Shown here: positions 10,016 to 33,228 of the stretch, one piece after another | How positions within the stretch are numbered: position 1 is the first letter of the stretch | How the letters are laid out: every line of letters starts with the position of its first letter | DNA from: Phycisphaerales bacterium | Lineage (GTDB): Bacteria; Planctomycetota; Phycisphaerae; UBA1845 | NCBI GenBank assembly: GCA_020639095.1 | Contig: JACKHH010000005.1 | Span: 56,574-120,573, forward strand | Reading direction: 5' to 3' | Length of the DNA: 64,000 bases | The notes under the pieces: generated by a model | What the model was told of the DNA's origin: nothing | The model's input: the letters and a program-made list of their open reading frames with translations, nothing else | The model's database searches: none | Program-made: the position numbers and the translations under genes

Positions 10016-12128
10016 TTTCGAAATCGCGCCTCAACCGGAAATACACACCAACGTCGTCTTCCTCGCTGCCGGGTACGTCCAAGCGGTCGTACTCCACCAC
10101 GAATTCCGCGGTGAGTTCGCCGATCGCGTAATCAAAACCAGCCGACACGTCCCACGCGTTCGTCGTGCCGCGCACCGAGTCGTCCTGCCAACGGTAGGTG
10201 ACGCGCTCAAACGACGAGAGGCTTTCACGCAGGTACCAGCGGTGGTCAAGCTGAAGGTCGAGCCATGACACGTTGCGCTGATCCACGCCGCCTTCAAAGA
10301 AGAAGCGCGAGAACCGCACGGACGCGTCGAGCGAATGTTCCGACGTCTGAATGAAGCGATATAGACCGTTGAGGTGGAAGGCGTCGAAGGGCTCGACGGT
10401 GTCGTCGTAGATTTCGTACTCCGCGCCCAGCGTATACTTGGGCTGCTCGTAGCGAATACCGATGCGGTGGTGGTTTGTGCGATCGGCGTAGCGGGCGAAG
10501 CCGCGTGAGTAATCGGCTTCCTGGTTGCGGTACGAGAGGCGATAGTACGGCGTCAAGCCGTTGTCGAAACGCTGTTCGAGGCTGAAGTCGACCCGCATGG
10601 TGTCGAGCTTGCCGTCGGCTGGCGTCGAGTATTCGTAGTCAATCAGAATCGTTTCGTCATCGAGAATGCGCCCGGTCGCGATGCGGGAAATCTGCGTCCA
10701 CTGGCCGACCGTGACAATGAGGTAGTCGCGCAATGGCTGATATACCCGGCGATTCGCGGAATCGGTGACCACGATCGTGCCCGGAATCACGTTCGCATGT
10801 CGCAGCGTGATCTGCGTCGGGCCGCGGAACGTGGCGGACTCATTGAGCACCACGCGCGAACCGTTGTCACCGTTGACATCCTCCGTGTCGTACGCCAGTG
10901 CGAGGTTCGCCCACAACTGACCGTAGGGATTCTTGCGGTTGTACTGCCAATCAATCAATGCACCGTACTGCGTCGTTTGCACGTCGTTGTCAATGTCCTC
11001 ATACAGCCCGAACACGTCGACGGTCGTGGTAAGGTTCGTATAAAGCTGATGAATAAGCTGGAAGTCGGCGCGGTGCGTCGAGATGTCGTAGGCTTCGTAT
11101 TTCTCGCGATTGAACTGGTAGCGGTAGATCGTTGAAAGGTTGTCGTTGTGCTTCAACGTCAACTGCGGGCCGATTTCGAAGATGTCGCGGGCGAAGTCGC
11201 CGCTCTCTTCCTGCCAACGCATCCGCGTCCACAATTCATTCGCGTCGTCGGTACCGAAGGTGAACCGATCGTCGACAATGATCAGGTCGCGCGTGGTTTC
11301 GTAGGCATCGCGCAGGCCCTGATATTCCTGCTTGTTTTCCGCGTGTTCATACGTCGCGTTGATCGTGTGGTTTCGCGAGACCGTCCAGTCGACGCCATAG
11401 TTCAGCGTGCTGTCGGTGTAGTGCTCGTCGTCGTAGCGATCGCGATTGCCCGTGCGGTCGGTTTCGAGGTAGTCGTACCGCAGGTGCATCGAGAGGTCGT
11501 CCGCCACGTAGCTCCAGTCGGTACCGAAGCCGGTCTGGCGTTCGTCGAGCGACGGCTGGAAGCGGCGATTGATGCGATCGTCGCGGCGGATGGCGTACAC
11601 CGAACCCGAAAGCGGTTTGCCCTGGAAGAAGTTCATCCGCGCGTCGTAGAGCAGCAGCGTTCCGCTGTCATCGTCGCTGTAGTCCGCGGTGGGGCTGCGT
11701 TCGGAAAAGTGACTTTGCGTCAGGGCAAAGCTGAGATCGGCTTGGAAGGTGATGAAGCTTGGGTCGATGATCGTTCCGCCAAGACCAAGGCCGAAGCGCT
11801 CTTCGATATTCACATCGCGATTGGTTTGTGACCACTGCCGCCGGCCTTGCCTGCGCTGGCGAAGCTCGGAACGCACGCGCGTCTGATCAAACTGGGTTTC
11901 GAGTTCGAGGTAGCCGTCGAGGCGGTCGAGTGAGAAGTAACGCGGGCGTTCGCTGTCGTTGACCTCGTCGCTTTCATCCTGCGCAGCCGCGGAGGTCGCT
12001 GCAATAAGCAGCGTTGCGACGAACAGTGAAAAAGGGAACCGAACGGGGTTAGACCGCATGCCCATGATCGCTGCGTGCATCACATTCCTTAGAGCCATGG
12101 TCCGCGCCAAACAGACTCGTAGCCGCAC
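9996..12128 (-). CDS. Outer-membrane beta-barrel protein (about 690-710 aa), porin-like component of a putative porin-cytochrome conduit
   Basis: Probable start at the internal Met (about 12059) giving signal MRSNPVRFPFSLFVATLLIAATSAAAQ. The rest is rich in alternating aromatic/polar residues (Y, W, D, T, R) with no long hydrophobic helices, as in large beta-barrels of MtrB/OmbB-like size. It is the first gene of the minus-strand cytochrome/NHL operon. Confidence 0.6.
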   Translation of the reverse strand: MRLRVCLARTMALRNVMHAAIMGMRSNPVRFPFSLFVATLLIAATSAAAQDESDEVNDSERPRYFSLDRLDGYLELETQFDQTRVRSELRQRRQGRRQWSQTNRDVNIEERFGLGLGGTIIDPSFITFQADLSFALTQSHFSERSPTADYSDDDSGTLLLYDARMNFFQGKPLSGSVYAIRRDDRINRRFQPSLDERQTGFGTDWSYVADDLSMHLRYDYLETDRTGNRDRYDDEHYTDSTLNYGVDWTVSRNHTINATYEHAENKQEYQGLRDAYETTRDLIIVDDRFTFGTDDANELWTRMRWQEESGDFARDIFEIGPQLTLKHNDNLSTIYRYQFNREKYEAYDISTHRADFQLIHQLYTNLTTTVDVFGLYEDIDNDVQTTQYGALIDWQYNRKNPYGQLWANLALAYDTEDVNGDNGSRVVLNESATFRGPTQITLRHANVIPGTIVVTDSANRRVYQPLRDYLIVTVGQWTQISRIATGRILDDETILIDYEYSTPADGKLDTMRVDFSLEQRFDNGLTPYYRLSYRNQEADYSRGFARYADRTNHHRIGIRYEQPKYTLGAEYEIYDDTVEPFDAFHLNGLYRFIQTSEHSLDASVRFSRFFFEGGVDQRNVSWLDLQLDHRWYLRESLSSFERVTYRWQDDSVRGTTNAWDVSAGFDYAIGELTAEFVVEYDRLDVPGSEEDDVGVYFRLRRDFENVLARN

Positions 12129-13842: not shown

Positions 13843-16800
13843 CTACATGCCCGCGTCAAACGCAATTTGCAACTTCGCGAAGTCCTTGAGATCGACGTGG
13901 GCGTCGCGATTCAGATCGGCATCGTGGCAGCCCGGCAGCACTTCCGCAACCGGGCCAGTCAGGCAGTCTTCCAGCAACGCGAAGTCGGCAAGGTCCACGT
14001 CGCCGTCATCGTCGATGTCGCCCGCGAGCAGCACGCCGTATGCCTCGAACTCGTTGAGTGAACAGCCATTCGCGGTCGCGCCCACGTGGGCGTAGAGGCG
14101 GATGTATCGTGCGATTGCGTGCATATCGATCGACTCGGTCGCGCCGGCACCGTCCGTCGTGGCGTAGACATTCGTCCACGTGTCACCGTCGTCCGAAACG
14201 TCGATGTCGTACACCTGCGAATAGGCATCCGCCCATTTGAGCACGACCTGATCGACTTCGTAACGAGCACCCAGGTTGACTTCGAGCCACTGCGGATCAC
14301 CGTCTTCGCTTGCCCATGCCGTGCCCGCGTCGCCGTCAACCGCCAAATCGCCGACCAGCGCCATGCTGTTGACCGACGAGAGTTCGACGTCATCGAAGAG
14401 CACGTCAGCGCTTGAGCCCGCGATGGCGCCGCCCGCCAGTCGCAGCATGACCAACGCCTTGTCCGCGCCGGCAGGCGCCACGACATTGGTAAATCCAAAG
14501 TTGGCGTAGCTCTCGGTCAATCCGCCGCCGATGTCCAGGAACCCGGTCCCGCCAACAACGCCGCCGCCCGCATTCAGCCACTGCATGTTCATCTGCGCGA
14601 CAACGCTGACGCCCAGCGTGCCCAAACGGCGTGCCTTGGCTGACAGGTTGTACGTCTCGCCTGCAACGATCGAACCATCGGGCGTGATCTGCTGTGCGAG
14701 CGCTGCGGGACCGCCATCGGCGGCACCGACCACGCTGAGCTGGACGTGCCACGCGCCGCTGTTCGGGTTTGACGATTCGCGTGTGGCGGTCGCCGTCGAA
14801 CTGCCCGCGGGGAAACCGAGCAACGACCAGTTGTCGGCGTCGCTGCCGCTACCGTCTTCGAAGCCGCCGTTGAGCAGGAGCACGCCACTGGCTGCGGTCG
14901 ACGTGGTGACCGGCTTGCCCAGGGCAATGTTCTGCGGTGGATTGGTGACTTCGACCTGCACCTGATCGCTGCCCATCAAGCCGAGATTGTCGGTGACGGT
15001 CAATTCAAAAACGTAGGTGCCTTCGTAGAGGTCTTCGACGTCGGTCGTTGCCTGCGACGGATCGGTGATGGTCGCGGTCGCGGGGCCGCTGATCTGCGCC
15101 CACGCGTATGCAACGATGGTTCCGTCCGCGTCCCAGCCGCTACCGGTCAGCGTCGCGCTGTCGGTCGGCAGGGCGATGACCTGATCAGCGCCCGCGTCCG
15201 CGGTCGGTTCGGGTGTGGCCACTGTTACCGTCGCGCTGTCGCTGTCGGTGAGGTCGTCATCGTCCGTCACCGTCAGGCGGAATATGTAAGTGCCCTCGAC
15301 GAGATTGGACACGCCGAGCATCGCGGTGTTCGCGTTGGTGAGCGTTGCGTTCGACGGGCCGCTGATCTGCACCCAGGTAAAGTCGGTGATGACTCCGTCG
15401 TCGGTGCTCTGCGAACCGTCGAGCGTCGTGCTGTTGGTCGGGAGGATCAGCACTTGATCATCGCCGGCGTCCGCTTCGGGCAGGCCCGCGCCGACCGGTA
15501 ATGCATCACCGCCACCGAGCAGGCAGACATCGTCGAACTCGATATCCGAAATCGGTCCGTTGACGCCGAGAACCTGGAACAGCATGCTCACCTCGGTGAG
15601 ATTGACCGCGTCGATGATGTCGGCCATGGGGATTTCCAAAACGTGCCATTGACCGTCGCGGGCGAATCCGTACGGGTCGTTGCCCGCGGCGAATTCGATC
15701 CACTTCTGGTCGATGTCGTCGACGTTTCCGCTGCGCATGCCCAGGCGGAACGTTGTATTCGACGTCGTCTTCATCGCCAGGTGCAACGTGCTTTCGGGGA
15801 AGCGGAACGCGGAAAGGTTGTGCTTGATCGTCGGCGTGAAGGCCGCACCGAACCAGGTCAAACCGGGCACGGAGTAGAGCGACACACTTTCCGCGCCTTC
15901 GTACGGATCGTGCGATCCTTCCAGCAAGGTATGCTCCCAAATGTAGAAACCACCATCCGGGCCAAGGTCGTAGTTGCCCGCCGTCTTGTGCGCCGGGTCT
16001 TCGGTGAAGATACCGAAGCTGCCGTTCTCCGGCGTGGGACGTTCGACGCTCGGCGTCCAGTACATGTTGTCGATCGCGAACTGGAACGGGCCAGCCGATG
16101 GGTCGCCCGCGATCATGAACAACTGGCTGACCGTGTTGAAGTCGGTATTCAGAAACTTGTTCAACGGTACCACAACGTTGTGCCAGTTGCCGTCGCGCAC
16201 CAGACCGTAGTTGGTTACGCCATCCTCGAAGAGCACCCAGGCTTCACCGGACGTCGCGCTCTTGAGTCCGATCTTGAAATTCTCGGTGGACGTGGTCTTC
16301 ATCTGGAAGTGCAGGTAGCCGTCGGAGTAGTTCTTCAGGTTGCGATCGAATTGCGTGGAAAGCACGCCCATTCCCCACCAGGCGCCCGGAGCGGCTGACA
16401 TGCTCCAAACCTCGCTGCCTTCGTATGGGGTTTCCGCAACTTCGGTGAGGTTGTTCCAGATGAACAGGTCGGCATCGGTCTCGTACTGCACGTGGTTGTT
16501 GACCGGTGTGGTCTCGGTGAAGATTCCGAAGTCACCCGTCTCCTGCACGTCGTCGCCGTAGAACAGTTCCGTATCGCCGTTGTCGTAAATGCGGATGTAA
16601 TCGATGTACATCCTGCCGGGGAAAGGAGCGGTGATCGCGCCCGGATCGGTGATTTCGATGAAGTTCCATCCGCCGACCGCGACGTTCGTCAGGATGAACA
16701 TCGGCTCGTGGAACTCTTCCAGGTCGTCCGCCACCGGATCGCTGATGTCCAGCGACCAGTAGAGATCGCCATCGACGTAGGTCCTGATTTCCGTCGGCGT

Positions 16801-17511
16801 CCATTCCATCCTGAACAGGTGGTAGTCGTTGTAGAGCACCGTCGGCCTGTCGGTGTAGTCGGTGGTGTAGATGTGCTCGTCGTTGAGTTCCCAATGGCCC
16901 GCCGAAGAAACGCGCTGATTGACCAATCCTGCTTCTTTTCCGTCCTTGCGACCGAACTCCATGATGTCCAACTCGCCGCATCGCGGCCAGTCGATCGCGC
17001 CGTAGCTGCTGCCCATGATCCACAGCGCGGGCCAGATACCGTAGTCCACGTCAGGGAGTTTGATCCGCGCTTCGAGGGTGCCGTATTTGAACGAGAACCG
17101 GCCATTGGTAACCAGGCGGGACGAGGTGAACGCCTTGTCGCCGAGGAAGTAGTCGCGGCGGGCTTCGATCACCAGGCTGCCGTTGTCGATGCGAACGTTT
17201 TCCGGGCGGTTGGTGTAATACTGCAATTCCCCATTTCCAAAACCGCTGCCGCCGGTGTTGAAGGTCCAGGTGGAACGATCAATTTCGGGCCCGTCGAATT
17301 CGTCCGACCAGACCAGGGTCTGTCCGAAGGCCACGGATGTCAGAGACAACCCCACCAATGTTGCAAGAATGCAAACCGGATAGCTCTTCACGCTACGCCG
17401 TCCCTTCCTGTTGTCGCTCACGGTGCGGGAATGCACCGAAGGAATGAAATCGCAAACAGTCTCTGCGACTGTTTCAGGCCCATCGTATGAAGTATGGCTT
17501 GCACCTGTCAA
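13843..17511 (-). CDS. Secreted multidomain glycoside hydrolase family 16 beta-glucanase (laminarinase-like) with CBM-like, PKD/Ig-like and F5/8-type-C (discoidin) domains and a C-terminal dockerin-like module
   Basis: GH16 catalytic motif ELDIME within a WSDEF...GELDIMEF context. Two roughly 90-aa Ig/PKD-like repeats (VLILPTNSTTLDGSQS..., VIALPTDSATLTGSG...). A discoidin-like block (EVDQVVLKWADAYSQVYDIDVSDDGDTW). C-terminal DIDDDGDVDLADFA...DLNRDAHVDLKDFA dockerin-type Ca-binding repeats. The likely true start is GTG near 17385, preceded by AGGAAGGGA. The signal peptide is VKSYPVCILATLVGLSLTSVAFGQ. Confidence 0.75.
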   Translation of the reverse strand: MTGASHTSYDGPETVAETVCDFIPSVHSRTVSDNRKGRRSVKSYPVCILATLVGLSLTSVAFGQTLVWSDEFDGPEIDRSTWTFNTGGSGFGNGELQYYTNRPENVRIDNGSLVIEARRDYFLGDKAFTSSRLVTNGRFSFKYGTLEARIKLPDVDYGIWPALWIMGSSYGAIDWPRCGELDIMEFGRKDGKEAGLVNQRVSSAGHWELNDEHIYTTDYTDRPTVLYNDYHLFRMEWTPTEIRTYVDGDLYWSLDISDPVADDLEEFHEPMFILTNVAVGGWNFIEITDPGAITAPFPGRMYIDYIRIYDNGDTELFYGDDVQETGDFGIFTETTPVNNHVQYETDADLFIWNNLTEVAETPYEGSEVWSMSAAPGAWWGMGVLSTQFDRNLKNYSDGYLHFQMKTTSTENFKIGLKSATSGEAWVLFEDGVTNYGLVRDGNWHNVVVPLNKFLNTDFNTVSQLFMIAGDPSAGPFQFAIDNMYWTPSVERPTPENGSFGIFTEDPAHKTAGNYDLGPDGGFYIWEHTLLEGSHDPYEGAESVSLYSVPGLTWFGAAFTPTIKHNLSAFRFPESTLHLAMKTTSNTTFRLGMRSGNVDDIDQKWIEFAAGNDPYGFARDGQWHVLEIPMADIIDAVNLTEVSMLFQVLGVNGPISDIEFDDVCLLGGGDALPVGAGLPEADAGDDQVLILPTNSTTLDGSQSTDDGVITDFTWVQISGPSNATLTNANTAMLGVSNLVEGTYIFRLTVTDDDDLTDSDSATVTVATPEPTADAGADQVIALPTDSATLTGSGWDADGTIVAYAWAQISGPATATITDPSQATTDVEDLYEGTYVFELTVTDNLGLMGSDQVQVEVTNPPQNIALGKPVTTSTAASGVLLLNGGFEDGSGSDADNWSLLGFPAGSSTATATRESSNPNSGAWHVQLSVVGAADGGPAALAQQITPDGSIVAGETYNLSAKARRLGTLGVSVVAQMNMQWLNAGGGVVGGTGFLDIGGGLTESYANFGFTNVVAPAGADKALVMLRLAGGAIAGSSADVLFDDVELSSVNSMALVGDLAVDGDAGTAWASEDGDPQWLEVNLGARYEVDQVVLKWADAYSQVYDIDVSDDGDTWTNVYATTDGAGATESIDMHAIARYIRLYAHVGATANGCSLNEFEAYGVLLAGDIDDDGDVDLADFALLEDCLTGPVAEVLPGCHDADLNRDAHVDLKDFAKLQIAFDAGM

Positions 17512-17715: not shown

Positions 17716-19803
17716 TTACTTGGGGCCGTCGCTCCCTGCCAGTTCCTTGCCAAGGTTGACGCTCATCTTATCGGCTGCGTCGTTGACCTCGTCGGTCAGG
17801 GCATCGAGCACCTTGATGGCTGCGTCCGGATTGTGCAGGTGGTTCGCGTGGTTGAGTCGGATAAGAACGTTACGCGTATCCTCGAGCGTCTGCCGCGCCG
17901 CGTCCGCGCCGGAGGTGCGTGTCTTGTCCAGCACGGCCTCGAACTTGTCGCAATTCTCGAGGAACTTTGCCTGCACATCGTGGAACTTCGCGTCCCACTC
18001 GTCGAGCTTGCCGTCGTATTCGTCATCGTGGCAGTCGGCGCACACCGTGTTCATCTTCGCCCGCGTGAGTGGTTGTGACAGGTCGTGGCAGTCTGAGCAG
18101 CCGACATCGTCGGCCATCGGATCCGGTTCGATCTTGAAACGCGCGAAGACCGGATCGCTGCCCGCGAACAAGCCTTGCACGCCGGTATGGCACCCGGCGC
18201 AGGTAGTCTCCGGCGTGAGGCCGCCCGTGTGGCACTGATCGCAGCGCACGGCTGCGTGTGTTGCATCGAGTTCGTACGGATGCTGGAACTCGCCCTTGCT
18301 GATCAGATCCTTCTTCGACTCAACGTGTACGGTGTTGAGAAATGTGTGGCACGAACTGCACTCGTGGCTGATGGCATTGCCGTGCTGGTTCACGTGCTTG
18401 CCGTCGTGGCAGCGGAAGCACCCGGGCGATTCCAGGTGGCCGATGTTGTCGGGATACGTGCGCCAGTCGACGCGCATGTACGGGAAGAAGTTCTGGTCGT
18501 AGATCTGCGAGGTGGCTTCCGCCGCAGCACGGATTTTCTCGCCATCCTCTTCGAACTGCTTGGGATATTCCTTGCGGTAAAAATCGGAGATGCTCTTGAC
18601 GATGCCTTCGTGGGCTGCGTCGTCATTGGGATAGGTCACCGCCAGCGCTTTGACGGCTTCTCGTTTGATGTACGGAATGCCGGGGTCAATGCCGCCGGTT
18701 TCGAGGAACGCATTCACGCCGTCGCTGGGCGAGTGGAACTTGTGTGCGGGCCGATTGTGGCAGTCCATGCAGTCCATCATGCGCCGCTGGCCGTCCGGAG
18801 GCGTGCTGGCTGCGGCTTCGCCGTCGGAGCGGTAGATCAGCTCCTCGCCCGATTCGTCGATCCAGCGCACCCAGGGGATTTCCTGAAGCTTGTCGTCGGT
18901 GGCGATGTACTCGATTTTCCCGGAGAAAAGCATGTGTTTGTGGATACCCTCCGCGCGACCGGTGGCCAGGTCGGCGCCACCGGTTTTCACCAGCATCTCG
19001 ATGTCGCGACGCGTGTTGTTCTCGTCCGACTTGAAGCGTGCAATCTGGCGAAGCTGGGCGCCGAAGAACTTGTTCGGCCAGTGACACTGTTCGCAAGTTT
19101 CGCGCGCCGGGCGCAGTTGTTCGATTGCGGGAGGGATGGGGCGGTGATAGGTGTCGAACACCACGGCAAACACCTGCCGCGTGCCGGACAGCTTGGACTT
19201 TACGAACCAGCTCGCGCCGGAGCCGATGTGACACTCGGCGCAGGCGACGCGCGCGTGCGACGACCGGCTGAAAGCGACCGCCTGCGGTTCCATGACCGAG
19301 TGACACGCATTGGCACAAAACTGCGTCGAGTCGGTGTAGTGGTACCCGTGATAGCTGCTCACGCCGAGGATGGGCAAGAACAGCAGAATACCCAGCACGG
19401 TGAGCTTGGCCACGCGGCGCTGGCGGGGGTCGTTCAGGTTGATGCGTGGAAAACGCAACGACAACTTCTGCGTGGGATCGATGCGACGGATGCGCCAGCT
19501 CTTGAACAGGATACCCAAAGGCATCAACGCGACGCCGATGCCCATGAGCACTGGAATCGCGAGGTATCCGAAGATGTCGACGTACGGGTTGCTCGCGGGC
19601 GACACCACGGAGAACAACCCGAAGGTCAGCAGCAGGATGAGCGCCATGATGGCGATGTACATCCCGCCGATTGTGATCACGTTGTGCCACAGCGGATGCG
19701 CTTCGGTCTCGGGTTCCGATGACTTGGCGGCGCCCGGTGTCGAGGGCGTCGTGTTGCGCGATTCGTCACGTGGCGTGTCGTTGTGGTCTGGCATAGCGGT
19801 CAA
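17716..19803 (-). CDS. ImcH-like inner-membrane multiheme cytochrome of the NapC/NirT family (9 CxxCH plus 1 CxxxCH sites, 3 N-terminal TM helices)
   Basis: Three TM helices near the N-terminus. Motifs CANACH (CxxxCH), CAECH, CEQCH, CMDCH, CFRCH, CSSCH, CDQCH, CAGCH, CSDCH, CADCH. A membrane anchor followed by a tetraheme NapC-like core and then extra hemes matches the architecture described for Geobacter ImcH. Confidence 0.75.
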   Translation of the reverse strand: MTAMPDHNDTPRDESRNTTPSTPGAAKSSEPETEAHPLWHNVITIGGMYIAIMALILLLTFGLFSVVSPASNPYVDIFGYLAIPVLMGIGVALMPLGILFKSWRIRRIDPTQKLSLRFPRINLNDPRQRRVAKLTVLGILLFLPILGVSSYHGYHYTDSTQFCANACHSVMEPQAVAFSRSSHARVACAECHIGSGASWFVKSKLSGTRQVFAVVFDTYHRPIPPAIEQLRPARETCEQCHWPNKFFGAQLRQIARFKSDENNTRRDIEMLVKTGGADLATGRAEGIHKHMLFSGKIEYIATDDKLQEIPWVRWIDESGEELIYRSDGEAAASTPPDGQRRMMDCMDCHNRPAHKFHSPSDGVNAFLETGGIDPGIPYIKREAVKALAVTYPNDDAAHEGIVKSISDFYRKEYPKQFEEDGEKIRAAAEATSQIYDQNFFPYMRVDWRTYPDNIGHLESPGCFRCHDGKHVNQHGNAISHECSSCHTFLNTVHVESKKDLISKGEFQHPYELDATHAAVRCDQCHTGGLTPETTCAGCHTGVQGLFAGSDPVFARFKIEPDPMADDVGCSDCHDLSQPLTRAKMNTVCADCHDDEYDGKLDEWDAKFHDVQAKFLENCDKFEAVLDKTRTSGADAARQTLEDTRNVLIRLNHANHLHNPDAAIKVLDALTDEVNDAADKMSVNLGKELAGSDGPK

Positions 19804-19916
19804 TCCTGAATACGGAGCAACCAGCCCGACGAGTTTACTGCGCAGCAGCGCAAAGCATTACACGCGGAGGACACGCGCTGCCACCAGCCAAATGCACGCG
19901 GCGGCTGGCAATAACC

Positions 19917-22859
19917 TTAGCGATAGGCTTCGATCATCGCATAGACGATCAGAACGACTAGCGTCAACCCGATCAGCAGGGCGGTGGCCCCGAATATCTT
20001 GATCACCCGCAACGCCAGCGGCGACGGCGGATCGACCATGCGTTTGTCCAACTGGCCGCTCTCGACCATCTGCTGGTATTCCAGCGGGCGTTCGTGCTTC
20101 AACTCCGCCAGTGGCATTCTGCCGGTGAAGATCACCGTGTCCATCGGGAACTTCTCCGGACGCAGATTCGCGTTGAAGAAGTGGATGGTGAAGATGAATC
20201 CCGTCGCGAGCAGCGCCTCGTCGCTGTGGATGATCGTCGCGACGTTGATCAGCCAACCCGGCAGCACGTACGTGAACACCTCGGGGAACCAGAGGAACAC
20301 ACCGGTTGACCCGATGATCGCGATACCCCAGAACACCGCGAAGTAGTCGAACTTTTCCCAATAGGTCCAGCGGCCGTAATCGGGTTTGGGACCTCGGCCG
20401 ATGAACCACTTCATCGTCGCGAAGAACTCGCCAATGTCGCTGAATCGCGGCACGATCGACTCAGGACCGAAGATAAACGACCAGAGCGTCTTACCGCTTT
20501 CGATGTAGCGCTTGCGCAGGTCCCAGAGGTGGAAGACGAACAGCGTGAACATCGCCACCGCGCAGGTGCGGTGAATGAAACCAGCCGACTCGAACCCGCC
20601 CAACGCACGCGAGAGCGCCACCGCCCAACGCGTATAGCTGAACTTGAGCATCATGCCGGTAATCGCGAGCCCAAAGAAGCTCAGGATCATCACCAGGTGC
20701 ATGATCCGCACCTTGGGGACGAAGCGCATGTACTGCTTTGTCGTGGTGATGGTCAGTGCAGCCTCGGCTTGGCGAAGTTCCTTCCGCATGCGCCACGACC
20801 GTGGCAACCAAATCAGCGTGTGCAGCCCGAAGAATCCAAACGTGCCCACCAGCAGCGTCGTCATGCCCCAGAAGGCGTAGTACAACGCGGGGTACTTCTT
20901 CGGATCGTGATGCGTGGCGTGTGTCAGGTACCCCGCGAACTGGCGATGTGCGCCCGGGTGACATTGGGCGCAGGTCGCGACGATGTTGTCATGACTCAGC
21001 CGCGACTTGGGATCGGTCACGCGCAGGATGTCGTGCGCGCCGTGGCAGTCCTGGCACTTCGCGGTCTCGGCTTCCCCGAGCAGCGACACCTTGCCGTGAT
21101 ACGTGTCGTTGAAGTACGACTCGGTCAATTCCTGGTGACACTTGCCACACTGATCCATGATCGACAGCTTGAAATCGTTCTCGTCGGTGCGCGAGATCGA
21201 GTGCGGCGAATGGCAATCATTGCAACGCGGCAGGGCAGACATGCCCTGAAGCTGCGTATACTCCGGGTTGCCCGTCGGCGAGTGTACGCTGGTCGAGTAC
21301 TTGTCGTAGATGCCGTGGTGACACTCACCGCAAGTGGCTGCGATGTGGTCGGGGTTCACGCTGGCGGCTGGGTCGCTCGCGGGCAGCGCGCGGTGCGCGG
21401 TGTGGCAGCTCGTGCACGTCGCGGTCACGGTGAGCCCGCTCTCGAGCAGACCCTTGCCGTGGATGCTCATCGTGTAGTTCTGGACGATGTTGTGCTGTTC
21501 TCCGAGGTAGCGGACGGCGGCTTTTCCGCCTTCGCGGTGACACTTTCCGCAAAGCGTGGGCACGTTGATCGCGAAGGTTGGCGATTCGCGTACTTTGGCT
21601 TGCAGGATGGTCGGCGCGTCGTCTTTGATGCTGTGCTCAAGAATGCCGTGCGTTCCGTGGCAATCGGCACAGGCGGGTGCGTTGGGATCACCCTTCGCGT
21701 GCAGCGTGCCGTGAACGCTCATCTCATAGTCTGATACCGCAGCTTCATGGCAAATGGCGCAATCGACCTTCTGTTCGAGCGAGGCACAGGGACGCGTCGG
21801 GTCCGACGGATCGACACCCGTGTGACACTGCGCACACGCAACAACCTTTCGCCCGTGAATCGACTCCGCGTACTCTTCCGGATTCACGAACAGCGATTTG
21901 CCATCGGCGGTCGCGACAAGTTCCGGATCGCGGTGGCAGTGCAGACAGTCCGCATTCGCAAGACCGGTGTCATACGATGCTTTGCGGGCTTCGTGTGGTG
22001 AGTGGCACTCGACGCAGTTGGGAATCTTGTTCGGTTCCTTCTCCCACATCGAGCCGCGAATGATCTTGCGGTGTACGTTCTCAATGATGCCGTGACACTT
22101 CATGCACGTCGCGGTTACGTTCTCCTTCGAGATCGACGACTTGGGATCGTCGTGCGGGAGCACGTGGTGGCCCGTGTGACAACTGGTGCAGACCGCCGTC
22201 ACCACGAGCCCCTGTTTGAACAAGCCCTCGCCGTGGATGCTCTGCGTGTAGCGTTTGAGAATCTGATCCTGCGGAATGTCGTACGCACGCTCGACCGGTG
22301 CGCCTTCCGCGTGGCACTGTGCGCACATCTGCGGGACGTTGAACGGGGCGACGGCTGACTTCGGATCGGACAGCGGGACGATGTAGTGGTTGCCGTGGCA
22401 ATCCTGGCAGCGCGGCGCGAGCGGGTCTTCTTCCTCAAGACGCTGGCCGTGAATGCTCTCCGCGAACTCCTCTGCCGCTTCGTCGTGACACATCGTGCAA
22501 TCGACGCGCGCGAGATCGAACTTGTGCGGTAGCTCGGTGTCTTCGAGATCCTCGTGGCAGGTCACGCAGTCGAGGTCGGCGTGTACCGACTTGTTGAACT
22601 GCTCGAGGTCAACGAACAGCGAAACCTGACGATCCCCGCGCGTGCCCACGAGATTGCGGTCGCGCCCGTGACATTCCAGGCAGAACGCGTTGTCCTGGGC
22701 GAAGGCTGAGTTCGTCGATGCAGTCAGCGCGACGACTACGGCAGCACACGCCAATTGACACGGGGTAAGTCGAAAAGCAGGGATCCGCATGGGCATCTCT
22801 TGCGCTGGTCGTGGTTGATACGTGCAACAGTACGGGCGAACGCGGCCCGGCGGTTGCAC
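19917..22859 (-). CDS. CbcL-like fusion protein: N-terminal 19-heme c-type cytochrome domain plus C-terminal diheme cytochrome b (HydC/FdnI-like) membrane domain
   Basis: Signal peptide. Nineteen CxxCH sites counted by eye. The C-terminal roughly 330 aa carry 5-6 TM helices with conserved His residues, as in cytochrome b subunits of formate dehydrogenase and hydrogenase. Overall architecture matches Geobacter CbcL, but with many more hemes. Confidence 0.75.
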   Translation of the reverse strand: MQPPGRVRPYCCTYQPRPAQEMPMRIPAFRLTPCQLACAAVVVALTASTNSAFAQDNAFCLECHGRDRNLVGTRGDRQVSLFVDLEQFNKSVHADLDCVTCHEDLEDTELPHKFDLARVDCTMCHDEAAEEFAESIHGQRLEEEDPLAPRCQDCHGNHYIVPLSDPKSAVAPFNVPQMCAQCHAEGAPVERAYDIPQDQILKRYTQSIHGEGLFKQGLVVTAVCTSCHTGHHVLPHDDPKSSISKENVTATCMKCHGIIENVHRKIIRGSMWEKEPNKIPNCVECHSPHEARKASYDTGLANADCLHCHRDPELVATADGKSLFVNPEEYAESIHGRKVVACAQCHTGVDPSDPTRPCASLEQKVDCAICHEAAVSDYEMSVHGTLHAKGDPNAPACADCHGTHGILEHSIKDDAPTILQAKVRESPTFAINVPTLCGKCHREGGKAAVRYLGEQHNIVQNYTMSIHGKGLLESGLTVTATCTSCHTAHRALPASDPAASVNPDHIAATCGECHHGIYDKYSTSVHSPTGNPEYTQLQGMSALPRCNDCHSPHSISRTDENDFKLSIMDQCGKCHQELTESYFNDTYHGKVSLLGEAETAKCQDCHGAHDILRVTDPKSRLSHDNIVATCAQCHPGAHRQFAGYLTHATHHDPKKYPALYYAFWGMTTLLVGTFGFFGLHTLIWLPRSWRMRKELRQAEAALTITTTKQYMRFVPKVRIMHLVMILSFFGLAITGMMLKFSYTRWAVALSRALGGFESAGFIHRTCAVAMFTLFVFHLWDLRKRYIESGKTLWSFIFGPESIVPRFSDIGEFFATMKWFIGRGPKPDYGRWTYWEKFDYFAVFWGIAIIGSTGVFLWFPEVFTYVLPGWLINVATIIHSDEALLATGFIFTIHFFNANLRPEKFPMDTVIFTGRMPLAELKHERPLEYQQMVESGQLDKRMVDPPSPLALRVIKIFGATALLIGLTLVVLIVYAMIEAYR

Positions 22860-22930
22860 CGGCCCGGTATCGTTGACGAATCCGCGCGATTTCGCAACCG
22901 CTAAATCACCGCCGGCGGCCCGTTCGCCGA

Positions 22931-24940
22931 CTAGTGCTCGTGCTCCTCTTCGTCGTGGCTTCCGAGCGCGTTGTCTTCAACTTCCTCTTCCAGACGCGGT
23001 CGAAACTTTCGGCCCTTGAGTCGCGGCCCATCGGGATGCTCGTGGTCGTACATCACCTTCGACATGCGCCCCGCAAGCCACGCGGTATTCATCGGGTAAA
23101 CCGTCGGTTTGAAGACGGTGTGGTAAACGTGCCAGACGAGAATCGCCAGCGTCGCGAGCCACGCTTCGTAGTAGTGAATCACGAGCATGACGTCGAGGAA
23201 GCCTTTCGGCAGGCCCAGGCGGTTGGCGAGATAGTCAAACCAGAGAAAGATGCCGGTGCCCGTCATGATGATTGTACCCCAGACGAGCGCCCAGTATTCC
23301 GCCTTCTCCATGTAGCTGAAACGCTTGTACTTCGGCTCTTCCGCGCGGAGGCCGAGGAAGTACAGCGAGTTTTGCCAAACGTGGGTGAAGTCGGACATCG
23401 CCAGCACCATGTCGCGCACCCAATGACGCCCGCGGTGCGTGAACATGTAGAACAGGTGCCAGATCGACGTCGCCGTCATCACCACGGCGGCTCCACGATG
23501 AATATCACCGCGAATCTCGAATCCGCCTTCCCAACCAAAGATCAGCCGGGACCACCACGATTCCGAGAAGCGCAACGAGAAGCCGGTGATTACCAGTACG
23601 ATGAACGACACCATCAGCGCCCAGTGCTGCATCACTTCGTTCATGCTCAGGCGCTGCACGTGGGGGAGTTTCTTCGCGTCGCGCACCTTGCGGAACCAGT
23701 CGCCGATGTTGTGCAGCAACATCAAGCCGATCGTGGCCACGATGAGTACGATGTACAGCTTGCGGAAGAACTCCGCCCAACCAGTGTGCAGACCGGCACC
23801 GGTTTCGTGAATCTTCGTCTGAGCAAGGTCCTCGGTGATGCCCGGGTGACACTTGCCGCAGGTGTGCCGCAGGTTCGACGCGTTAATCGATGACGTCGGG
23901 TCGGTGGAAGGCAGGATGCGGTGCGCGCCGTGGCACGACGAACAGTTCGCCACTTTGAGGTCACCGGCTTTGCTCTTCAAACCGTGATAGCTGTCGATGT
24001 ACGACGCCAAGCGCCCGCCCGGCAAGCCGAATTTCTCATTGAGCACCGCCGATTCGTGGCAGGGGGCGCAGGTCTGCTCAGCAACGTGCGTGGGGCTGAC
24101 TGGCGAATTGGGATCGTCCGGCGGAATGATGCCATGCTCGCCGTGACAGGTGGTACACACCGGGGCAGCCATTTCGCCGCGTGCGACGAACTGCCCGTGG
24201 ATGCCTTCCCAAAAATCCCGCGATATCGGCTTGTGACATTTGCCGCAGGTGTCGGGAATGTTGAAGTGATACGTCGTCGATTCGGGGTCGCGCGGCGAGA
24301 GGATACGGTGCGCACTGGGCGCGCCGTCCGGGCCGGGCGATGAGTGGCAATCGTTGCACGTCGCGGAAAGGTAGATGCCTTTCTCCGTCGTGGCTTGGCC
24401 GTGTACGCTGCTTTCGTACATCTCGACCGGGCCGGCGCGCAGCACCTCGTGCTTGGCCAGCATGTTCAGGTTCGTATGGCACTTCAGGCACGTCTTCGGC
24501 AGGTTCACCGGGTGTACGCGCGAACGCTGATCCGCCACCGGCAGAATGTCGTGGTGACCGTGGCAATCCCAGCATTCGGGGATGTCGGGGTCGGTGTGAA
24601 CTTCGAGGCGACCGTGCTTCTTGTAGACCTCGGATTCGTCTTCGTGGCACTCCGCGCAGCCAATCAACTGAATGTCGCCGTGCGGGTGTTCGGATTCGAG
24701 GTTGACGTTGTCGGCGTCGATGTCACCGTGGCAGTCGTCGCATGACAGGTCGGAGTGAATCGACTTCGCGAGCAATTCCGCCGGCGGGCCGATCTCACGC
24801 GAAACCGCCTGGCTGTGGCACTTCGCGCAGCCTTCCAACTCCTGCTCCGGCTCGGCGAAAACCGGAGCGGCGAGGATGAGGGTCAGGATGATGGCTGGGG
24901 GAATCCATCGCGGGGAATGACGCAACTTCAAAAGGCTCAT
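22931..24940 (-). CDS. CbcL-like fusion protein: 11-heme c-type cytochrome domain plus C-terminal cytochrome b membrane domain
   Basis: Signal MSLLKLRHSPRWIPPAIILTLILAAPVFA. Eleven CxxCH sites. The C-terminal TM-rich domain is paralogous to that of the 19917-22859 protein. Acidic His-rich C-terminal tail (HDEEEHEH). Confidence 0.75.
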   Translation of the reverse strand: MSLLKLRHSPRWIPPAIILTLILAAPVFAEPEQELEGCAKCHSQAVSREIGPPAELLAKSIHSDLSCDDCHGDIDADNVNLESEHPHGDIQLIGCAECHEDESEVYKKHGRLEVHTDPDIPECWDCHGHHDILPVADQRSRVHPVNLPKTCLKCHTNLNMLAKHEVLRAGPVEMYESSVHGQATTEKGIYLSATCNDCHSSPGPDGAPSAHRILSPRDPESTTYHFNIPDTCGKCHKPISRDFWEGIHGQFVARGEMAAPVCTTCHGEHGIIPPDDPNSPVSPTHVAEQTCAPCHESAVLNEKFGLPGGRLASYIDSYHGLKSKAGDLKVANCSSCHGAHRILPSTDPTSSINASNLRHTCGKCHPGITEDLAQTKIHETGAGLHTGWAEFFRKLYIVLIVATIGLMLLHNIGDWFRKVRDAKKLPHVQRLSMNEVMQHWALMVSFIVLVITGFSLRFSESWWSRLIFGWEGGFEIRGDIHRGAAVVMTATSIWHLFYMFTHRGRHWVRDMVLAMSDFTHVWQNSLYFLGLRAEEPKYKRFSYMEKAEYWALVWGTIIMTGTGIFLWFDYLANRLGLPKGFLDVMLVIHYYEAWLATLAILVWHVYHTVFKPTVYPMNTAWLAGRMSKVMYDHEHPDGPRLKGRKFRPRLEEEVEDNALGSHDEEEHEH

Positions 24941-25219
24941 GATGCGCTCCGAACTCGTTGGCGCTTAGCAACTTACGAACCGGCCGGACAACTTTGGCGG
25001 ACCCTCCGGCCACCCGCCGATTCTAGATGGGTCATCGGATTCGGCTGTCAGAAAAGTTTGTTCTCGGCCCCTGGAGCGGGGTTTTCGTGGCGATGTTAAA
25101 CTTGCCGGACAGTCCGCGCTGGTGGAAAATGATCACATCGACCGCAGCTTGCGGATTTCCCGGAAACAAAAGCTCGATAGAATCGTCATATCCTACGGAA
25201 CGGGTCGGCCGACGGAGAC

Positions 25220-26308
25220 GTGATCGTGAAAGCTGGACGAGTTCAAGTCATCGCGCTGCTGGTGACGGTGGTGGCATGCGCGGCTGGGCGGACGGTACAT
25301 GCAACGGAAGTATTCGATTCCATCGACGCTGCGATGGACTACGCCAACACCGCATTGGCGCAAGATGAGAGCGAGCGACTCGGCGCGATTGTCATCTCGG
25401 TGGATGCCGACATCGACGAACCCGCGAGCGTGAACTGCGAATTCCGCATCTGGGCGGGTCGGCGATACCAGTCATTCAGAACCGATCAGGTGCTGGTGGA
25501 GGTCGGGAGTTGGGGGCCGGACTGCGGCGTGCGCCTGCGCGTGCCCGGTTTCCATGAGGTTGAGCGCAAGTTCGGCGTTATGCCCGGCGAGGTGCTCGTG
25601 CTTGAGGGCTTGCGGTTGGAGCAGGTCACCGAAGCCGATGCGGTGGACATCACCGGACTCGTCAAACTCGAAGACGACGCCAGTCCCGCGGGCGTTGATG
25701 TTCGCATCGGTGAAACGCGCGTGAAGACGGATGCGTACGGGCGTTTTCGCTTCCCGGGCTTGGGCGCGGGTGAGATTCGCGTTTCGGCGTACGCACCGGG
25801 ATTCGTCGGTATGTACGACACCATCGAAGCCAAACGCGGCGAGCGCAACTTCGTGATGCTCACCGGCTGGCAACCGCGGCGCGCCTACGTGCACTGGGGC
25901 TATCAACCGGATGGCAGCCACGATCTGAGTCGTGGCCTTGAAGAGGGTTACGCGATCATCTCCGACCAGGATATCGATCGAGTCAGCTTTGCAGAAGGTT
26001 TTAAAGATGTCCGCGGCGAGAGCGACTTCGCGGTCATGCAGCGTAAGGATCGCCTGATCATTCGCAACTTCGATGTCGGGAAAGGCAGGCCGGGCATTTT
26101 GCGGCTCGCTGAAACCAGCTTCGATGAAGTGGTGCAAGCGCCGGATGTGCCGTATCCGGAAAAGGACTACCCGCTGGACGAAGGGGATGTTTTCGTCTTC
26201 AAGTGCTATGACGGCGAGCACTACGCCAAGATCGAAGTCCTGCAACTCTTCGACAACGAAGAGGACTACGCGCGCGTGGTCAGCGACATGGCTCGTGGCG
26301 AACACTGA
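25220..26308 (+). CDS. Secreted hypothetical protein with a carboxypeptidase-regulatory-like (CarboxypepD_reg-type) beta-sandwich segment
   Basis: Probable GTG start at 25226, preceded by GGAGA. Signal VQVIALLVTVVACAAGRTVHA. Segment TDAYGRFRFPGLGAGEIRVSAYAPGF resembles CarboxypepD_reg folds. No catalytic motifs were recognised. Confidence 0.55.
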   Translation: MIVKAGRVQVIALLVTVVACAAGRTVHATEVFDSIDAAMDYANTALAQDESERLGAIVISVDADIDEPASVNCEFRIWAGRRYQSFRTDQVLVEVGSWGPDCGVRLRVPGFHEVERKFGVMPGEVLVLEGLRLEQVTEADAVDITGLVKLEDDASPAGVDVRIGETRVKTDAYGRFRFPGLGAGEIRVSAYAPGFVGMYDTIEAKRGERNFVMLTGWQPRRAYVHWGYQPDGSHDLSRGLEEGYAIISDQDIDRVSFAEGFKDVRGESDFAVMQRKDRLIIRNFDVGKGRPGILRLAETSFDEVVQAPDVPYPEKDYPLDEGDVFVFKCYDGEHYAKIEVLQLFDNEEDYARVVSDMARGEH

Positions 26309-32561: not shown

Positions 32562-32596
32562 CCTCGAAACGGTGGTGAACAGTTCCTCCACCCAGG

Positions 32597-32640
32597 GGTG
32601 TCCGCACGGCCCCGACCCGTGCGGGCACCCTGCCTTTTTT
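32597..32640 (+). terminator. Rho-independent terminator after the SPFH gene
   Basis: CCGCACGG-CCCCGAC-CCGTGCGG hairpin followed by a T6 run (GCCTTTTTT). Confidence 0.6.
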
Positions 32641-32842
32641 AGTGTGTTGAGGTGGATCGCCGCCATCGGGTGGCCCAGGCCCTCTGGGCCTGGGGGCTTC
32701 GATTTATCGGGCAAACTCGCCGTTTCTCGTCTTGTAGCGACCGAAACGACGGGTGATCCATCATGCTTGCTCAATCACTACCCCAGTCCCGAAGGGCCTG
32801 GGCCACCCCTGACTGTTCGTAGCCACCTACAGCCCAATTGCC

Positions 32843-32870
32843 TTGCGTTGTGGAGGGACCCACATATAAT
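32843..32870 (+). promoter_or_regulatory. Sigma70-like promoter upstream of rpmE
   Basis: TTGCGT (32843-32848), a 16-nt spacer, then TATAAT (32865-32870), about 70 nt upstream of ATG 32941. Confidence 0.45.
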
Positions 32871-32940
32871 GCGTGGCTCGGTTGCGGCTCGGAATTGGCG
32901 GGTCGCGGAGTTGGCCTGCCCAGGTGAAGGACGGCAGACG

Positions 32941-33228
32941 ATGAAGAAAGAAATCCATCCCAAGTATCGCGAGGTTGTGTTCCACGACGTGGAAGCCGAC
33001 TACAAGATTCTTACGCGCTCGACCATCCAGACCAAGGATACGATTTCGCTCGACGGCAAGGAGTATCCGCTGGTCAAGCTCGAAATCTCCAGCGCGTCGC
33101 ACCCGTACTTCACCGGCGCGGAGAAGTTCGTGGACACGGCTGGTCGCGTCGAACGCTTCACCAAGAAGTTCGGTGGCGACTACTTCGCAAAGCCGACCAA
33201 GAAGAAGAAACCCGCTGGTCGCCTTTAA
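32941..33228 (+). CDS. rpmE: 50S ribosomal protein L31, Cys-less type B form
   Basis: [14 protein letters not shown]...HPYFTG...KFGG is a typical L31 sequence. No CxxC zinc motif, which indicates the type B paralogue. The ORF-track start at 32572 is spurious. Confidence 0.85.

Follow-up and report, generated by a model that had tools for sequence, protein, structure and literature searches.

Three inner-membrane multi-haem cytochromes of the ImcH and CbcL families in a putative single transcription unit of a Phycisphaerales bacterium

Results

Three consecutive minus-strand genes of a Phycisphaerales bacterium encode one ImcH-family cytochrome (gene A) and two CbcL-like fusions of a multi-haem c domain with a cytochrome b domain (genes B and C). 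With a probability of roughly 0.7, we regard this trio as one transcription unit of three inner-membrane (mena)quinol:periplasmic-cytochrome oxidoreductases, likely serving extracellular electron transfer (EET). Judged from their sequences, the proteins are new members of known families, to which functions are attributed by homology. The window referred to below is the whole stretch of DNA that was analyzed (64,000 nt).

Genes and locus layout

A preliminary description of this DNA had listed three minus-strand open reading frames (ORFs), all of which are in place. Gene C (22931-24940, minus strand) codes for a 669-aa c/b fusion with 11 CxxCH haems, gene B (19917-22790, minus strand; up to 22859 with a GTG start) for a 957-aa c/b fusion with 19 CxxCH haems, and gene A (17716-19794 or 19803, minus strand) for a 692-aa long form of ImcH with 10 haems. 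The genes are consecutive, as that description had it; the one it called first, gene A, is in fact the last transcribed, the order on the minus strand being C, B, A. The C-B and B-A gaps measure approximately 140 and 122 nt, respectively. A hairpin scan found no terminator-like hairpins in either gap, with 8 hairpins in the region against 10.9 expected from shuffled sequence. A divergent intergenic region (24941-25219, no strand assigned), presumed to hold the C-B-A promoter, parts gene C from its 5' neighbor, a plus-strand gene at 25220-26308. We infer that C, B, and A are co-transcribed as a single unit. All three ORFs are intact, and their GC3 of 0.79-0.81 is similar to that of the adjacent genes.

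A putative outer-membrane conduit is located at 7110-12128 of the same window. The trio had been placed directly downstream of these conduit genes, but relative to the coding strand its position is upstream, and the intervening ~5.6 kb hold two plus-strand ORFs as well as a GH16/PKD/dockerin gene of 1222 aa. The unrelated GH16 gene in this position counts against a link to the conduit.

Gene A belongs to the ImcH family

Translation of gene A likely starts at the ATG at 19794, giving 692 aa, the same length as a 100% identical match (P0241). Nine CxxCH motifs and one CANACH site (CX3CH) amount to 10 haem sites, and the protein scores 32 bits against the Pfam profile Cytochrom_NNT (NapC/NirT; cutoff 24.1); counts and Pfam thereby agree with the NapC/NirT-type anchor and 10 haems, CANACH included, that had been described. 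Hydropathy places three TM helices at residues 47-65, 78-96, and 128-146 and reveals no further TM segments beyond these N-terminal ones. The CANACH site (residues 160-165) begins 14 residues past TM3 and reads CANACHSVM, i.e., CX3CHxxM, a motif invariant in both long and short ImcH-like forms. The CX3CH motif is kept in 120/120 homologues of gene A, and all 10 haem sites in 119 of them. NrfH was matched in the domain searches as well, and residues 133-244 align with NrfH (2j7a_C), indicating an NrfH-like quinol module.

According to the published descriptions available, ImcH is marked by three N-terminal TM helices (Levar 2014; Zhong & Shi 2018), and family members combine a CX3CH first motif with 5-9 CX2CH motifs, 6-10 haems in all (PMC6295460). 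Gene A exhibits every one of these hallmarks and is, by sequence comparison, an ImcH family member. Residues E127, K173, Q179, and Y188, named around haem 1 of ImcH from Geobacter sulfurreducens (GSU3259), as well as H137, correspond at a constant offset of +28 to D155, K201, Q207, Y216, and H165 of gene A. Among 106 long homologues and 24 short ImcH-like ORFs taken from the loci, Met168, Lys201, and Gln207 are invariant, position 155 is Asp or Glu (one Asn), and position 216 is mainly Tyr or Phe. The first seven haem motifs share the spacing of the ImcH homologues tabulated in PMC6295460 (Table S3), with a near-constant offset of +27 to +31. Like GSU3259, gene A combines three N-terminal TM helices with a CX3CH beside TM3 and NapC/NirT/NrfH homology. 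It differs in size: GSU3259 has 7 haems in ~500-520 aa, whereas the 10 sites in 692 aa of gene A mark the upper end of the 6-10 haems published, and its three extra haems and a helical tail of ~100 aa are all C-terminal. Moreover, Geobacter imcH, which is needed to reduce high-potential acceptors, is monocistronic, unlike gene A in the putative C-B-A unit. The homologue search showed the long form to be typical of Phycisphaerae and Planctomycetota.

Genes B and C are CbcL-like c/b fusions

In gene B, the likely start is not the GTG at 22859 (980 aa) but Met24 of the listed ORF, which leaves 957 aa, since this start yields a Sec signal peptide (AFA-QD) and matches a 957-aa NCBI/nr record (P0001, 100% identical). 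Its 19 CxxCH motifs are laid out as one, two copies of an 8-haem module, and a final two; each is 97-100% conserved in 115 homologues. The haem domain is followed by six TM helices with an FdnI-type cytochrome b domain (31.9 bits against Pfam Ni_hydr_CYTB, PF01292; gathering cutoff 30.1), so that counts and Pfam support the 19 motifs and diheme cytochrome b domain originally reported.

Gene C, likewise confirmed by counts and Pfam in its reported 669 aa, 11 CxxCH motifs, and gene B-like b-type domain, comprises a Sec signal peptide (VFA-EP), a 5-TM FdnI-type b domain, and a cytoplasmic tail that is acidic and rich in His. Gene C scores 47.2 bits against PF01292 (gathering cutoff 30.1) and 46 bits against TIGR01583 (FdnI), the latter under that model's cutoff. 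None of the 11 motifs varies among 89 homologues. The family profile matches 1kqf_C (E 1.2e-4), with FdnI His18/57/155/169 aligned to H439/H481/H589/H604, and the AF2 model (pLDDT 71.5) has FdnI 1kqf_C as its top Foldseek match (TM 0.71), followed by HyaC.

The signal peptides on both proteins place their c domains in the periplasm. Across the 115 and 89 homologues of genes B and C, respectively, there are enough conserved non-motif His residues to supply the distal ligands, while no Met is conserved; the four His residues that ligate haem in FdnI are retained without exception in both families. Both membrane domains find their best structural match in FdnI (1KQF/1KQG chain C), which is the cytochrome b556 subunit of E. 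coli formate dehydrogenase-N. In contrast to this separate 4-TM subunit, which is fed by an FeS subunit and reduces menaquinone, B and C have an extra TM helix before the b domain (B another one after it) and a fused haem c chain as electron partner, and their presumed direction is quinol oxidation. The preliminary description had staked its reading on two points, a cytochrome b identity of the membrane domains and conservation of the haem motifs in orthologues: Pfam, the FdnI alignment, and Foldseek all agree on the former, and the motifs are conserved in the homologues of genes A, B, and C.

Published feature tables, one family member from the literature listing, and a CbcL fragment read by OCR served to link the trio to the CbcL and ImcH families. 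Both B and C combine the N-terminal multi-haem c domain and C-terminal dihaem b domain of the CbcL/MtrH/MtoC family. In the available text and tables of Zhong & Shi 2018 (PMC6295460), most members have six TM helices and a few 4-5; gene B has six, and the five of gene C are inside this variation. Within-family identities there range from 28.6 to 100%, with 35% between CbcL and MtrH or MtoC. Gene B reaches this same range, being 35% identical along 687 aa to P0385, a CbcL-type representative with 9 haems (~46% in the b domain); against P0385, gene C shows 25% identity along 557 aa. A 62% identity between gene B and the OCR fragment of GSU0274 (CbcL) covers 50 aa only and is weak.

Nineteen haems had been called exceptional, a view we do not uphold: Zhong & Shi 2018 documents homologues with 3-23 haem motifs, among them several 19-haem proteins of ~910-950 aa, and exactly 19 motifs occur in 106/120 of the clusters closest to gene B. 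The 19-haem homologues from Caldithrix abyssi (Cabys_319), Solibacteraceae SbA3, and Ignavibacteria GWF2_33_9 (OGU58019.1), as listed in its Table S2, match gene B in motif spacing, with ~920-950 aa and 6 TM helices, and differ only in host lineage; OGU58019.1 (locus L065) is 50% identical to gene B. Relatives of gene B occur in at least 599 species-level genomes of many phyla, with at least 14 phyla named among the 80 loci listed. Gene B is classified as the Phycisphaerales orthologue of this catalogued 19-haem subfamily, and gene C as a member of a 5-TM paralogue class of the same family.

CbcL of G. sulfurreducens (GSU0274) shares with B and C a signal peptide and a bis-His multi-haem c domain fused to an FdnI/HydC-type b domain, as well as the lack of FeS, flavin, or molybdopterin subunits; its 6-TM layout is common to gene B, whereas gene C lacks the sixth helix. 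CbcL sensu stricto has nine haems, ~615-625 aa, and a Desulfuromonadia-type spacing; it is needed for acceptors below -0.1 V and is oxidatively gated, with V205 and F525 reported for its potential-dependent gating. We considered and rejected an assignment of gene B or C as CbcL in this sense (a GSU0274 orthologue), as both proteins depart from it in haem number, in length, and in motif spacing. The 9 haems and 619 aa of GSU0274 compare with 19 haems and 957 aa in gene B, a surplus attributable to the duplicated 8-haem module. The sequences should therefore be named CbcL-family or CbcL-like, as subfamilies separate from CbcL.

Pairing and fusion of the B and C classes

The view that CbcL was duplicated and greatly haem-expanded in this genome does not fit the data. 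Genes B and C are 30% identical, each is represented by a distinct set of orthologues across phyla, and they differ systematically in topology (6 versus 5 TM), TM6 being absent from 33/33 C-like partners, a fixed trait of the C class, and present in 75/77 B-like proteins. Their paralogy is consequently ancient and not the result of a recent duplication.

Synteny was counted at 50 gene B loci flanked by 3 kb or more of sequence. Gene B is accompanied by a C-like and an ImcH-like gene at 15 of these loci and by a C-like gene alone at another 12, and the trio recurs in other phyla. Neither partner is found within 10 kb at 20/50 loci, showing that the trio is not obligatory. In two lineages, C-like and B-like proteins are naturally fused into one polypeptide of 1566-1636 aa with 30-32 haems. 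The respective clusters (P0006 and P0091) have 12 and 6 member sequences, by which a gene-calling or assembly artefact is partly excluded. Topology permits such a C::B fusion solely because the C-terminus of protein C is cytoplasmic. Zhong & Shi 2018 (PMC6295460) reported, in the text available, that other cytochrome c genes are often found next to cbcL/mtrH/mtoC; that text makes no mention of pairing with a 5-TM paralogue or of fusions. Geobacter cbcL is a single gene, in contrast to the usually paired 19-haem and 5-TM classes. Being usually adjacent and sometimes fused, B and C probably function jointly and may form a hetero-complex.

Discussion

By homology, the trio would offer two kinds of exit for quinol electrons. 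In gene A, quinol would be oxidized at the periplasmic face, in the NrfH-like site beside haem 1. Both the protons and the electrons would exit on this side, rendering the step electroneutral, as published for ImcH, and the 10-haem chain would take the electrons into the periplasm. In genes B and C, by analogy with FdnI and Geobacter CbcL, quinol would be oxidized near the cytoplasmic-side haem of the membrane-spanning dihaem b domain. Protons would be freed inside the cell, whereas the electrons would cross via the two b haems and enter the covalently attached periplasmic chain of 19 (B) or 11 (C) haems. This route would conserve less energy but be aided by the membrane potential; for CbcL, a cytoplasmic-side quinone site has been proposed in the literature, together with a lower growth yield. 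From there, electrons may pass to periplasmic or outer-membrane cytochromes, e.g., the putative conduit at 7110-12128, and on to an extracellular acceptor. The potential-tuned respiratory branch put forward in the preliminary description is a reasonable analogy with Geobacter.

It is vanishingly improbable that these haem-rich ORFs are pseudogenes in decay or artefacts of sequencing error, assembly error, or motif-rich low-complexity sequence, and nothing was found in favor of such a reading. The intact ORFs with the GC3 of their neighbors and the confident AF2 models speak against it, and the retention of every haem motif and distal His in ~90-115 homologues at 55-80% identity already refutes it. 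A more serious alternative, which we nevertheless hold to be unlikely, is a general quinol-dehydrogenase hub in the manner of CymA, NapC, or NrfH, delivering electrons to periplasmic reductases or soluble acceptors with no extracellular link. The NapC/NirT/NrfH relatives of gene A do serve periplasmic reductases, no cytochrome partner is encoded near gene B at 20 of the 50 loci, and an unrelated gene parts the trio from the putative conduit. However, genes for Nrf, Nap, Tor, or Dms catalytic subunits were not found adjoining the trio, and chains of 11-19 haems are longer than a soluble periplasmic enzyme requires. The window is, furthermore, rich in large multi-haem cytochromes and contains a beta-barrel/NHL/11-haem cluster, and FeGenie-type surveys score Phycisphaerae CbcL matches alongside other EET genes.

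Homology does not settle which way the electrons flow, since the CbcL/MtrH/MtoC family occurs in Fe(III) reducers and Fe(II) oxidizers alike, and the literature available to us names no sequence feature that tells the directions apart. The trio might thus run in reverse, as quinone reductases fed by Fe(II), a cathode, or reduced humics, as proposed for MtoC. FdnI, the closest structural relative of both membrane domains, is itself a quinone reductase using periplasmic electrons. We rate this reversal as quite improbable, given that ImcH homologues have, in the sources available, so far been reported in reducers only, and an ImcH gene is part of the putative C-B-A unit. Moreover, the surroundings are heterotroph-like (glycoside hydrolase, peptidases), and no Cyc2, MtoA, or MtoB-type markers were seen within the 64-kb window.

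Returning to quinol oxidation toward the periplasm as the preferred reading, a bolder and tentative extension is that the 19-haem/6-TM B and the 9-16-haem/5-TM C proteins are halves of an obligate hetero-complex. It would hold ~30 c haems and 4 b haems, would often be accompanied by ImcH, and would be widespread in Planctomycetota, Acidobacteriota, Ignavibacteriota, Zixibacteria, and other phyla. Adjacency in over half of the well-flanked loci, the lack of TM6 in 33/33 partners, and the fusions in two lineages point this way. If this holds true, the B-C complex might reach across a large part of the periplasm with no need of soluble carriers, and such a "double CbcL" would constitute a major uncharacterized quinol-to-periplasm wire outside Desulfuromonadia.

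Organization and haem content of the cytochrome trio

The three cytochrome genes of this Phycisphaerales MAG are consecutive open reading frames (ORFs) on the minus strand, with C read first, B second, and A last. Gene C (22931-24940) encodes 669 aa with 11 CxxCH motifs, followed by gene B (19917-22859; 957 aa counted from Met24 at 22790, the probable start, and 980 aa counted from the GTG) with 19 CxxCH motifs and gene A (17716-19803, probable ATG at 19794; 692 aa) with nine CxxCH motifs plus the CANACH site. These haem-motif counts are exactly those reported in the preliminary description. Proteins 100% identical to the trio are recorded at NCBI (P0001, P0121, and P0241), and the GC3 of the three genes (0.79-0.81) matches that of the surrounding genes. 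The intergenic gaps within the trio measure ~140 and 122 nt, the upstream neighbor (25220-26308) is divergent, and a hairpin scan revealed no terminator-like hairpin in the C-B or the B-A gap. C-B-A is likely to form a single transcription unit; a promoter and terminator scan, in which sites were no commoner than in shuffled sequence, is neutral on this call.

Evaluation of the homologues showed the haem motifs to be conserved in all three families. Each of the 19 CxxCH motifs of B is retained in 97-100% of 115 full-length homologues (55-80% identical), the 11 motifs of C occur without exception in 89 homologues, and the CX3CH plus nine CxxCH sites of A are found in 119 out of 120 homologues. 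This conservation excludes a pseudo-haem region or a sequencing error, which the preliminary description had named as the outcome to be expected if orthologues lacked the motifs. Within the same 115 homologues of B, 18 non-motif histidines of the c domain are conserved, as are two that closely follow the last motif, and no methionine is conserved; bis-His ligation of all B haems would thus fit.

Gene A belongs to the ImcH family

ImcH proteins (GSU3259 in Geobacter sulfurreducens) are defined by three transmembrane (TM) helices, a membrane-adjoining CX3CH, and 5-9 additional CxxCH motifs (Levar 2014; Zhong & Shi 2018, PMC6295460). Three TM helices are located at the N-terminus of A, and its residues 133-244 align with the quinol dehydrogenase NrfH (2j7a_C), with CANACHSVM facing the CxxCHxM of NrfH. 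Residues E127, H137, K173, Q179, and Y188 are conserved in ImcH, with Q179 predicted to ligate haem 1 from the distal side (Pimenta et al., bioRxiv 2023). They are matched in A by D155, H165, K201, Q207, and Y216 at a constant offset of +28. H165, M168, K201, and Q207 never vary among 106 homologues of the long form and 24 of the short form; in the same set, position 155 is Asp or Glu with one Asn only, and position 216 is Tyr or Phe with one Val only. Furthermore, the first seven haem sites show the spacing of the ImcH homologues in Table S3 of Zhong & Shi (PMC6295460). Based on the TM helices, the CX3CH, the conserved residues, and the haem-site spacing, A can be assigned from its sequence to the ImcH family. 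Compared with ImcH it represents a long form, extended by three C-terminal haems and a tail of ~100 aa, which is common in Phycisphaerae and Planctomycetota. Its haem number lies at the top of the published range of the family (6-10).

Genes B and C carry cytochrome b domains of the FdnI type

In both B and C, the membrane domain matches Ni_hydr_CYTB (PF01292) above the gathering score of Pfam, and the nearest named NCBIfam model is FdnI, the cytochrome b subunit of E. coli formate dehydrogenase-N, at a score under its cutoff. FdnI was also the best structural match to an AlphaFold2 model of C (mean pLDDT 71.5; Foldseek target-normalized TM score 0.71), followed by CybB and HyaC. A profile of the C family matched the FdnI structure (1kqf_C) with an E-value of 1.2e-4, pairing FdnI His18, 57, 155, and 169, which we take from the literature on the formate dehydrogenase-N structure to be the haem-b ligands, with H439, H481, H589, and H604 of C. 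These correspond to H698, H740, H855, and H870 of B, and all four positions are invariant in both families. The membrane domain is thus upheld as cytochrome b by Pfam, fold, and ligand alignment, so that the principal outcome named in the preliminary description as refuting it, a domain other than cytochrome b, did not arise, and the placement of A with ImcH and of B and C with the CbcL type in the preliminary description proved right, given the ImcH hallmarks of A and the fused cytochrome b of B and C.

In both proteins one TM helix precedes the four-helix b core according to hydropathy and models. A further C-terminal TM helix is present in B only; the C-terminus of C is instead a cytoplasmic tail that is acidic and rich in His. 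Since both proteins start with a Sec signal peptide, their haem c domains are predicted to be periplasmic. Two additional histidines show little or no variation in either family (B H657 and H754, window ~20822 and ~20531; C H410 and H495), one located in the additional first TM helix (TM0) and the other where TM2 ends on the cytoplasmic side. They may serve a quinone site, a third haem, or another purpose. Thr replaces H754 in P0385, a 632-aa representative of the nine-haem CbcL type, so that H754 is not a family-wide feature.

Relation to CbcL and the nineteen haems

CbcL of G. sulfurreducens (GSU0274) comprises 619 aa and nine haems. P0385 likewise has nine haems, with the motif spacing of a Bdellovibrio homologue that Table S2 of PMC6295460 places beside those of Geobacter and Desulfuromonas. 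B is 35% identical to P0385 over 687 aa (E 3e-124), C only 25% (E 8e-50). As Geobacter CbcL itself shares 35% identity with MtrH or MtoC (Zhong & Shi 2018, PMC6295460), B falls inside the accepted divergence of the CbcL/MtrH/MtoC family, and C is a more distant paralogue. Neither is orthologous to GSU0274, and CbcL-family proteins is the proper name for both. A genome scan with B returned no Geobacter among the 80 closest loci, and no solved structure of CbcL or ImcH was found in the PDB sequences by phmmer searches with A and C or with the C-family profile. A 50-aa CbcL fragment, taken from a noisy OCR of the supplementary alignment of Antunes 2022 with two letters patched by hand, is 62% identical to B, which counts as weak evidence.

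The haem chain of B is organized as 1 + 8 + 8 + 2 and contains an internal duplication, with residues 60-288 and 302-554 being 35% identical (E 8e-46) and each segment hosting eight haems. C aligns best with the second module, the tail, and the b domain of B (30% identity).

Nineteen haems on one membrane subunit had been described as exceptional, a view that does not stand against the published family range of 416-1034 aa and 3-23 haem motifs in 15 phyla (Zhong & Shi, Front Microbiol 2018, PMC6295460). Among the entries in Table S2 of that study are 6-TM proteins with 19 haems (913-952 aa; Caldithrix abyssi, Solibacteraceae, Ignavibacteria, Bacteroidetes, and Marinilabiliales) and proteins with 11 haems (650-760 aa; Opitutus, Lentisphaerae, and Planctomycetes). 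In its motif spacing, B follows the Caldithrix 19-haem entry throughout, offset only by three short insertions, and the Ignavibacteria GWF2_33_9 entry (locus L065) is 50% identical to B over the full length. Exactly 19 motifs occur in 106 of the 120 protein-database clusters closest to B, and at least 599 genomes (scanned with one genome per species) contain a relative. The 80 closest loci cover Planctomycetota, Acidobacteriota, Ignavibacteriota, Bacteroidota, Myxococcota, Zixibacteria, Eisenbacteria, Hydrogenedentota, Omnitrophota, Gemmatimonadota, KSB1, Krumholzibacteriia, Elusimicrobia, Calditrichota, and others. The b domain alone retrieved 387 cluster representatives at E <= 1e-30; haem counts ranged from 0 to 22 in the 96 representatives of >=400 aa within the best 150 of these. 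CbcL matches in Phycisphaerae MAGs are also already known from HMM-based surveys. The trio is composed of new members of known, catalogued families, whose haem expansion and range have been published.

Recurrence of two distinct classes

To describe the genomic surroundings, ORFs in the 80 loci of the genome scan were sorted with BLAST, using A, B, C, and their sub-domains as references, and partners within 10 kb were counted in the 50 loci whose flanks reach 3 kb or more on either side of the B homologue. Both a second c/b fusion and an ImcH-like gene were found in 15 of the 50 loci, the second fusion only in 12, the ImcH-like gene only in three, and neither in 20. Gene order varies (C-B-A, C-A-B, or A-B with C on the opposite strand). 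The second fusion was closer to C than to B in every case, with 9-16 haems where complete, and the sixth TM helix was missing in all 33 C-like partners while being present in 75 of 77 B-like proteins. The constantly C-like partner and the sixth-helix difference identify B and C as two old, structurally distinct classes traveling together. The locally duplicated and greatly haem-expanded CbcL of the preliminary description is not borne out: a recent duplication is ruled out by the 30% identity, the separate sets of orthologues, and the fixed 6-TM/5-TM difference.

In seven well-flanked loci (L017, L021, L023, L035, L044, L081, and L085), hosted by Ignavibacteria, Chlorobi, Melioribacter, and Acidobacteriota, the B-type protein is split into separate adjacent genes for a 19-21-haem c domain (664-741 aa) and a b subunit (~285-310 aa). 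Conversely, head-to-tail C-like/B-like fusions were encountered in two clusters, P0006 (locus L005, 2568-7478; 1636 aa, 32 haems, 12 member sequences) and P0091 (1566 aa, 30 haems, six member sequences). They join a C-like part of 11-13 haems to a B-like part of 19 haems, keep both b domains, and are connected by a TM helix that corresponds to the former signal peptide of B, a topology that requires the odd number of helices found in the C class. In a Rosetta-stone reading these fusions hint that B and C may act together. At L005, an ImcH-like gene is found near P0006 inside a Rieske/cytochrome b operon. Modest novelty lies in the fixed pairing of a 6-TM with a 5-TM protein, in the naturally occurring fusions, in the split variants, and in the trio recurring in different phyla.

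Proposed electron flow

By homology with ImcH and NrfH, A would oxidize quinol at the periplasmic face near haem 1, with protons and electrons leaving on the same side. Such same-side release was shown for Geobacter ImcH and is inferred for A by analogy. In B and C, the two b haems of the FdnI-type domain would span the membrane. Bond and colleagues argue from such an arrangement that Geobacter CbcL oxidizes quinol with protons delivered to the cytoplasm, which would explain a ~50% lower growth yield; by analogy, cytoplasmic proton release would also accompany quinol oxidation by B and C. Their fused haem chains would then carry the electrons on to cytochromes of the periplasm or the outer membrane. 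By analogy with Geobacter, where the oxidases serve different potential windows, those encoded here may be divided in a similar way, as the preliminary description suggested.

Quinol oxidation by these proteins has a rival in the reverse direction, quinone reduction as suggested for MtoC, to which we attach a lower probability. The same holds for a purely periplasmic role of the trio, a possible yet less probable alternative to electron export. A redox loop, in which the ImcH-like protein oxidizes quinol outside and a CbcL-like protein reduces quinone inside, was rejected, as a single quinone pool provides no driving force.

Further loci in the window

A plausible recipient of these electrons is a putative outer-membrane conduit of three overlapping or adjacent genes at 7110-12128 (minus strand). 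It encodes an 11-haem cytochrome of 602 aa with paired-CxxCH and MtrC-like domains, an NHL-repeat beta-propeller of 366 aa, and a protein of 710 aa that has a signal peptide, lacks any Pfam or NCBIfam match, and by composition looks like an outer-membrane beta-barrel. Four clustered genes at 435-4848 (plus strand) encode a 4Fe-4S protein similar to HmcB/HybA (343 bits to HmcB), a membrane subunit of the NrfD family that resembles HybB/HmcC, a cytochrome c with 13 haems, and a tetrahaem cytochrome of c554-like type; this cluster resembles a further Hmc/Cbc-type complex and would be the fourth quinone-interacting module.

Between the putative conduit and the trio, 13843-17511 (minus strand) encodes a secreted protein of 1222 aa with GH16, PKD, F5/8 type C, and dockerin domains, which appears unrelated to electron transfer and is followed by a strong hairpin with a 17-bp stem (13757-13717). 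In the 218-aa ORF at 32572-33228 (plus strand), only residues 124-201 match ribosomal protein L31, and its true start probably lies far downstream of the listed one.

Significance

The trio reveals no new kind of system, and CbcL matches in Phycisphaerae had also been published before. By a Phycisphaerales example, the trio extends two families of inner-membrane quinol oxidases that serve as genomic markers of extracellular electron transfer. The arrangement of an ImcH, a 19-haem protein, and its 5-TM paralogue represents a recurrent module across many little-studied phyla, which helps to read FeGenie-type surveys and to choose a tractable organism for testing.
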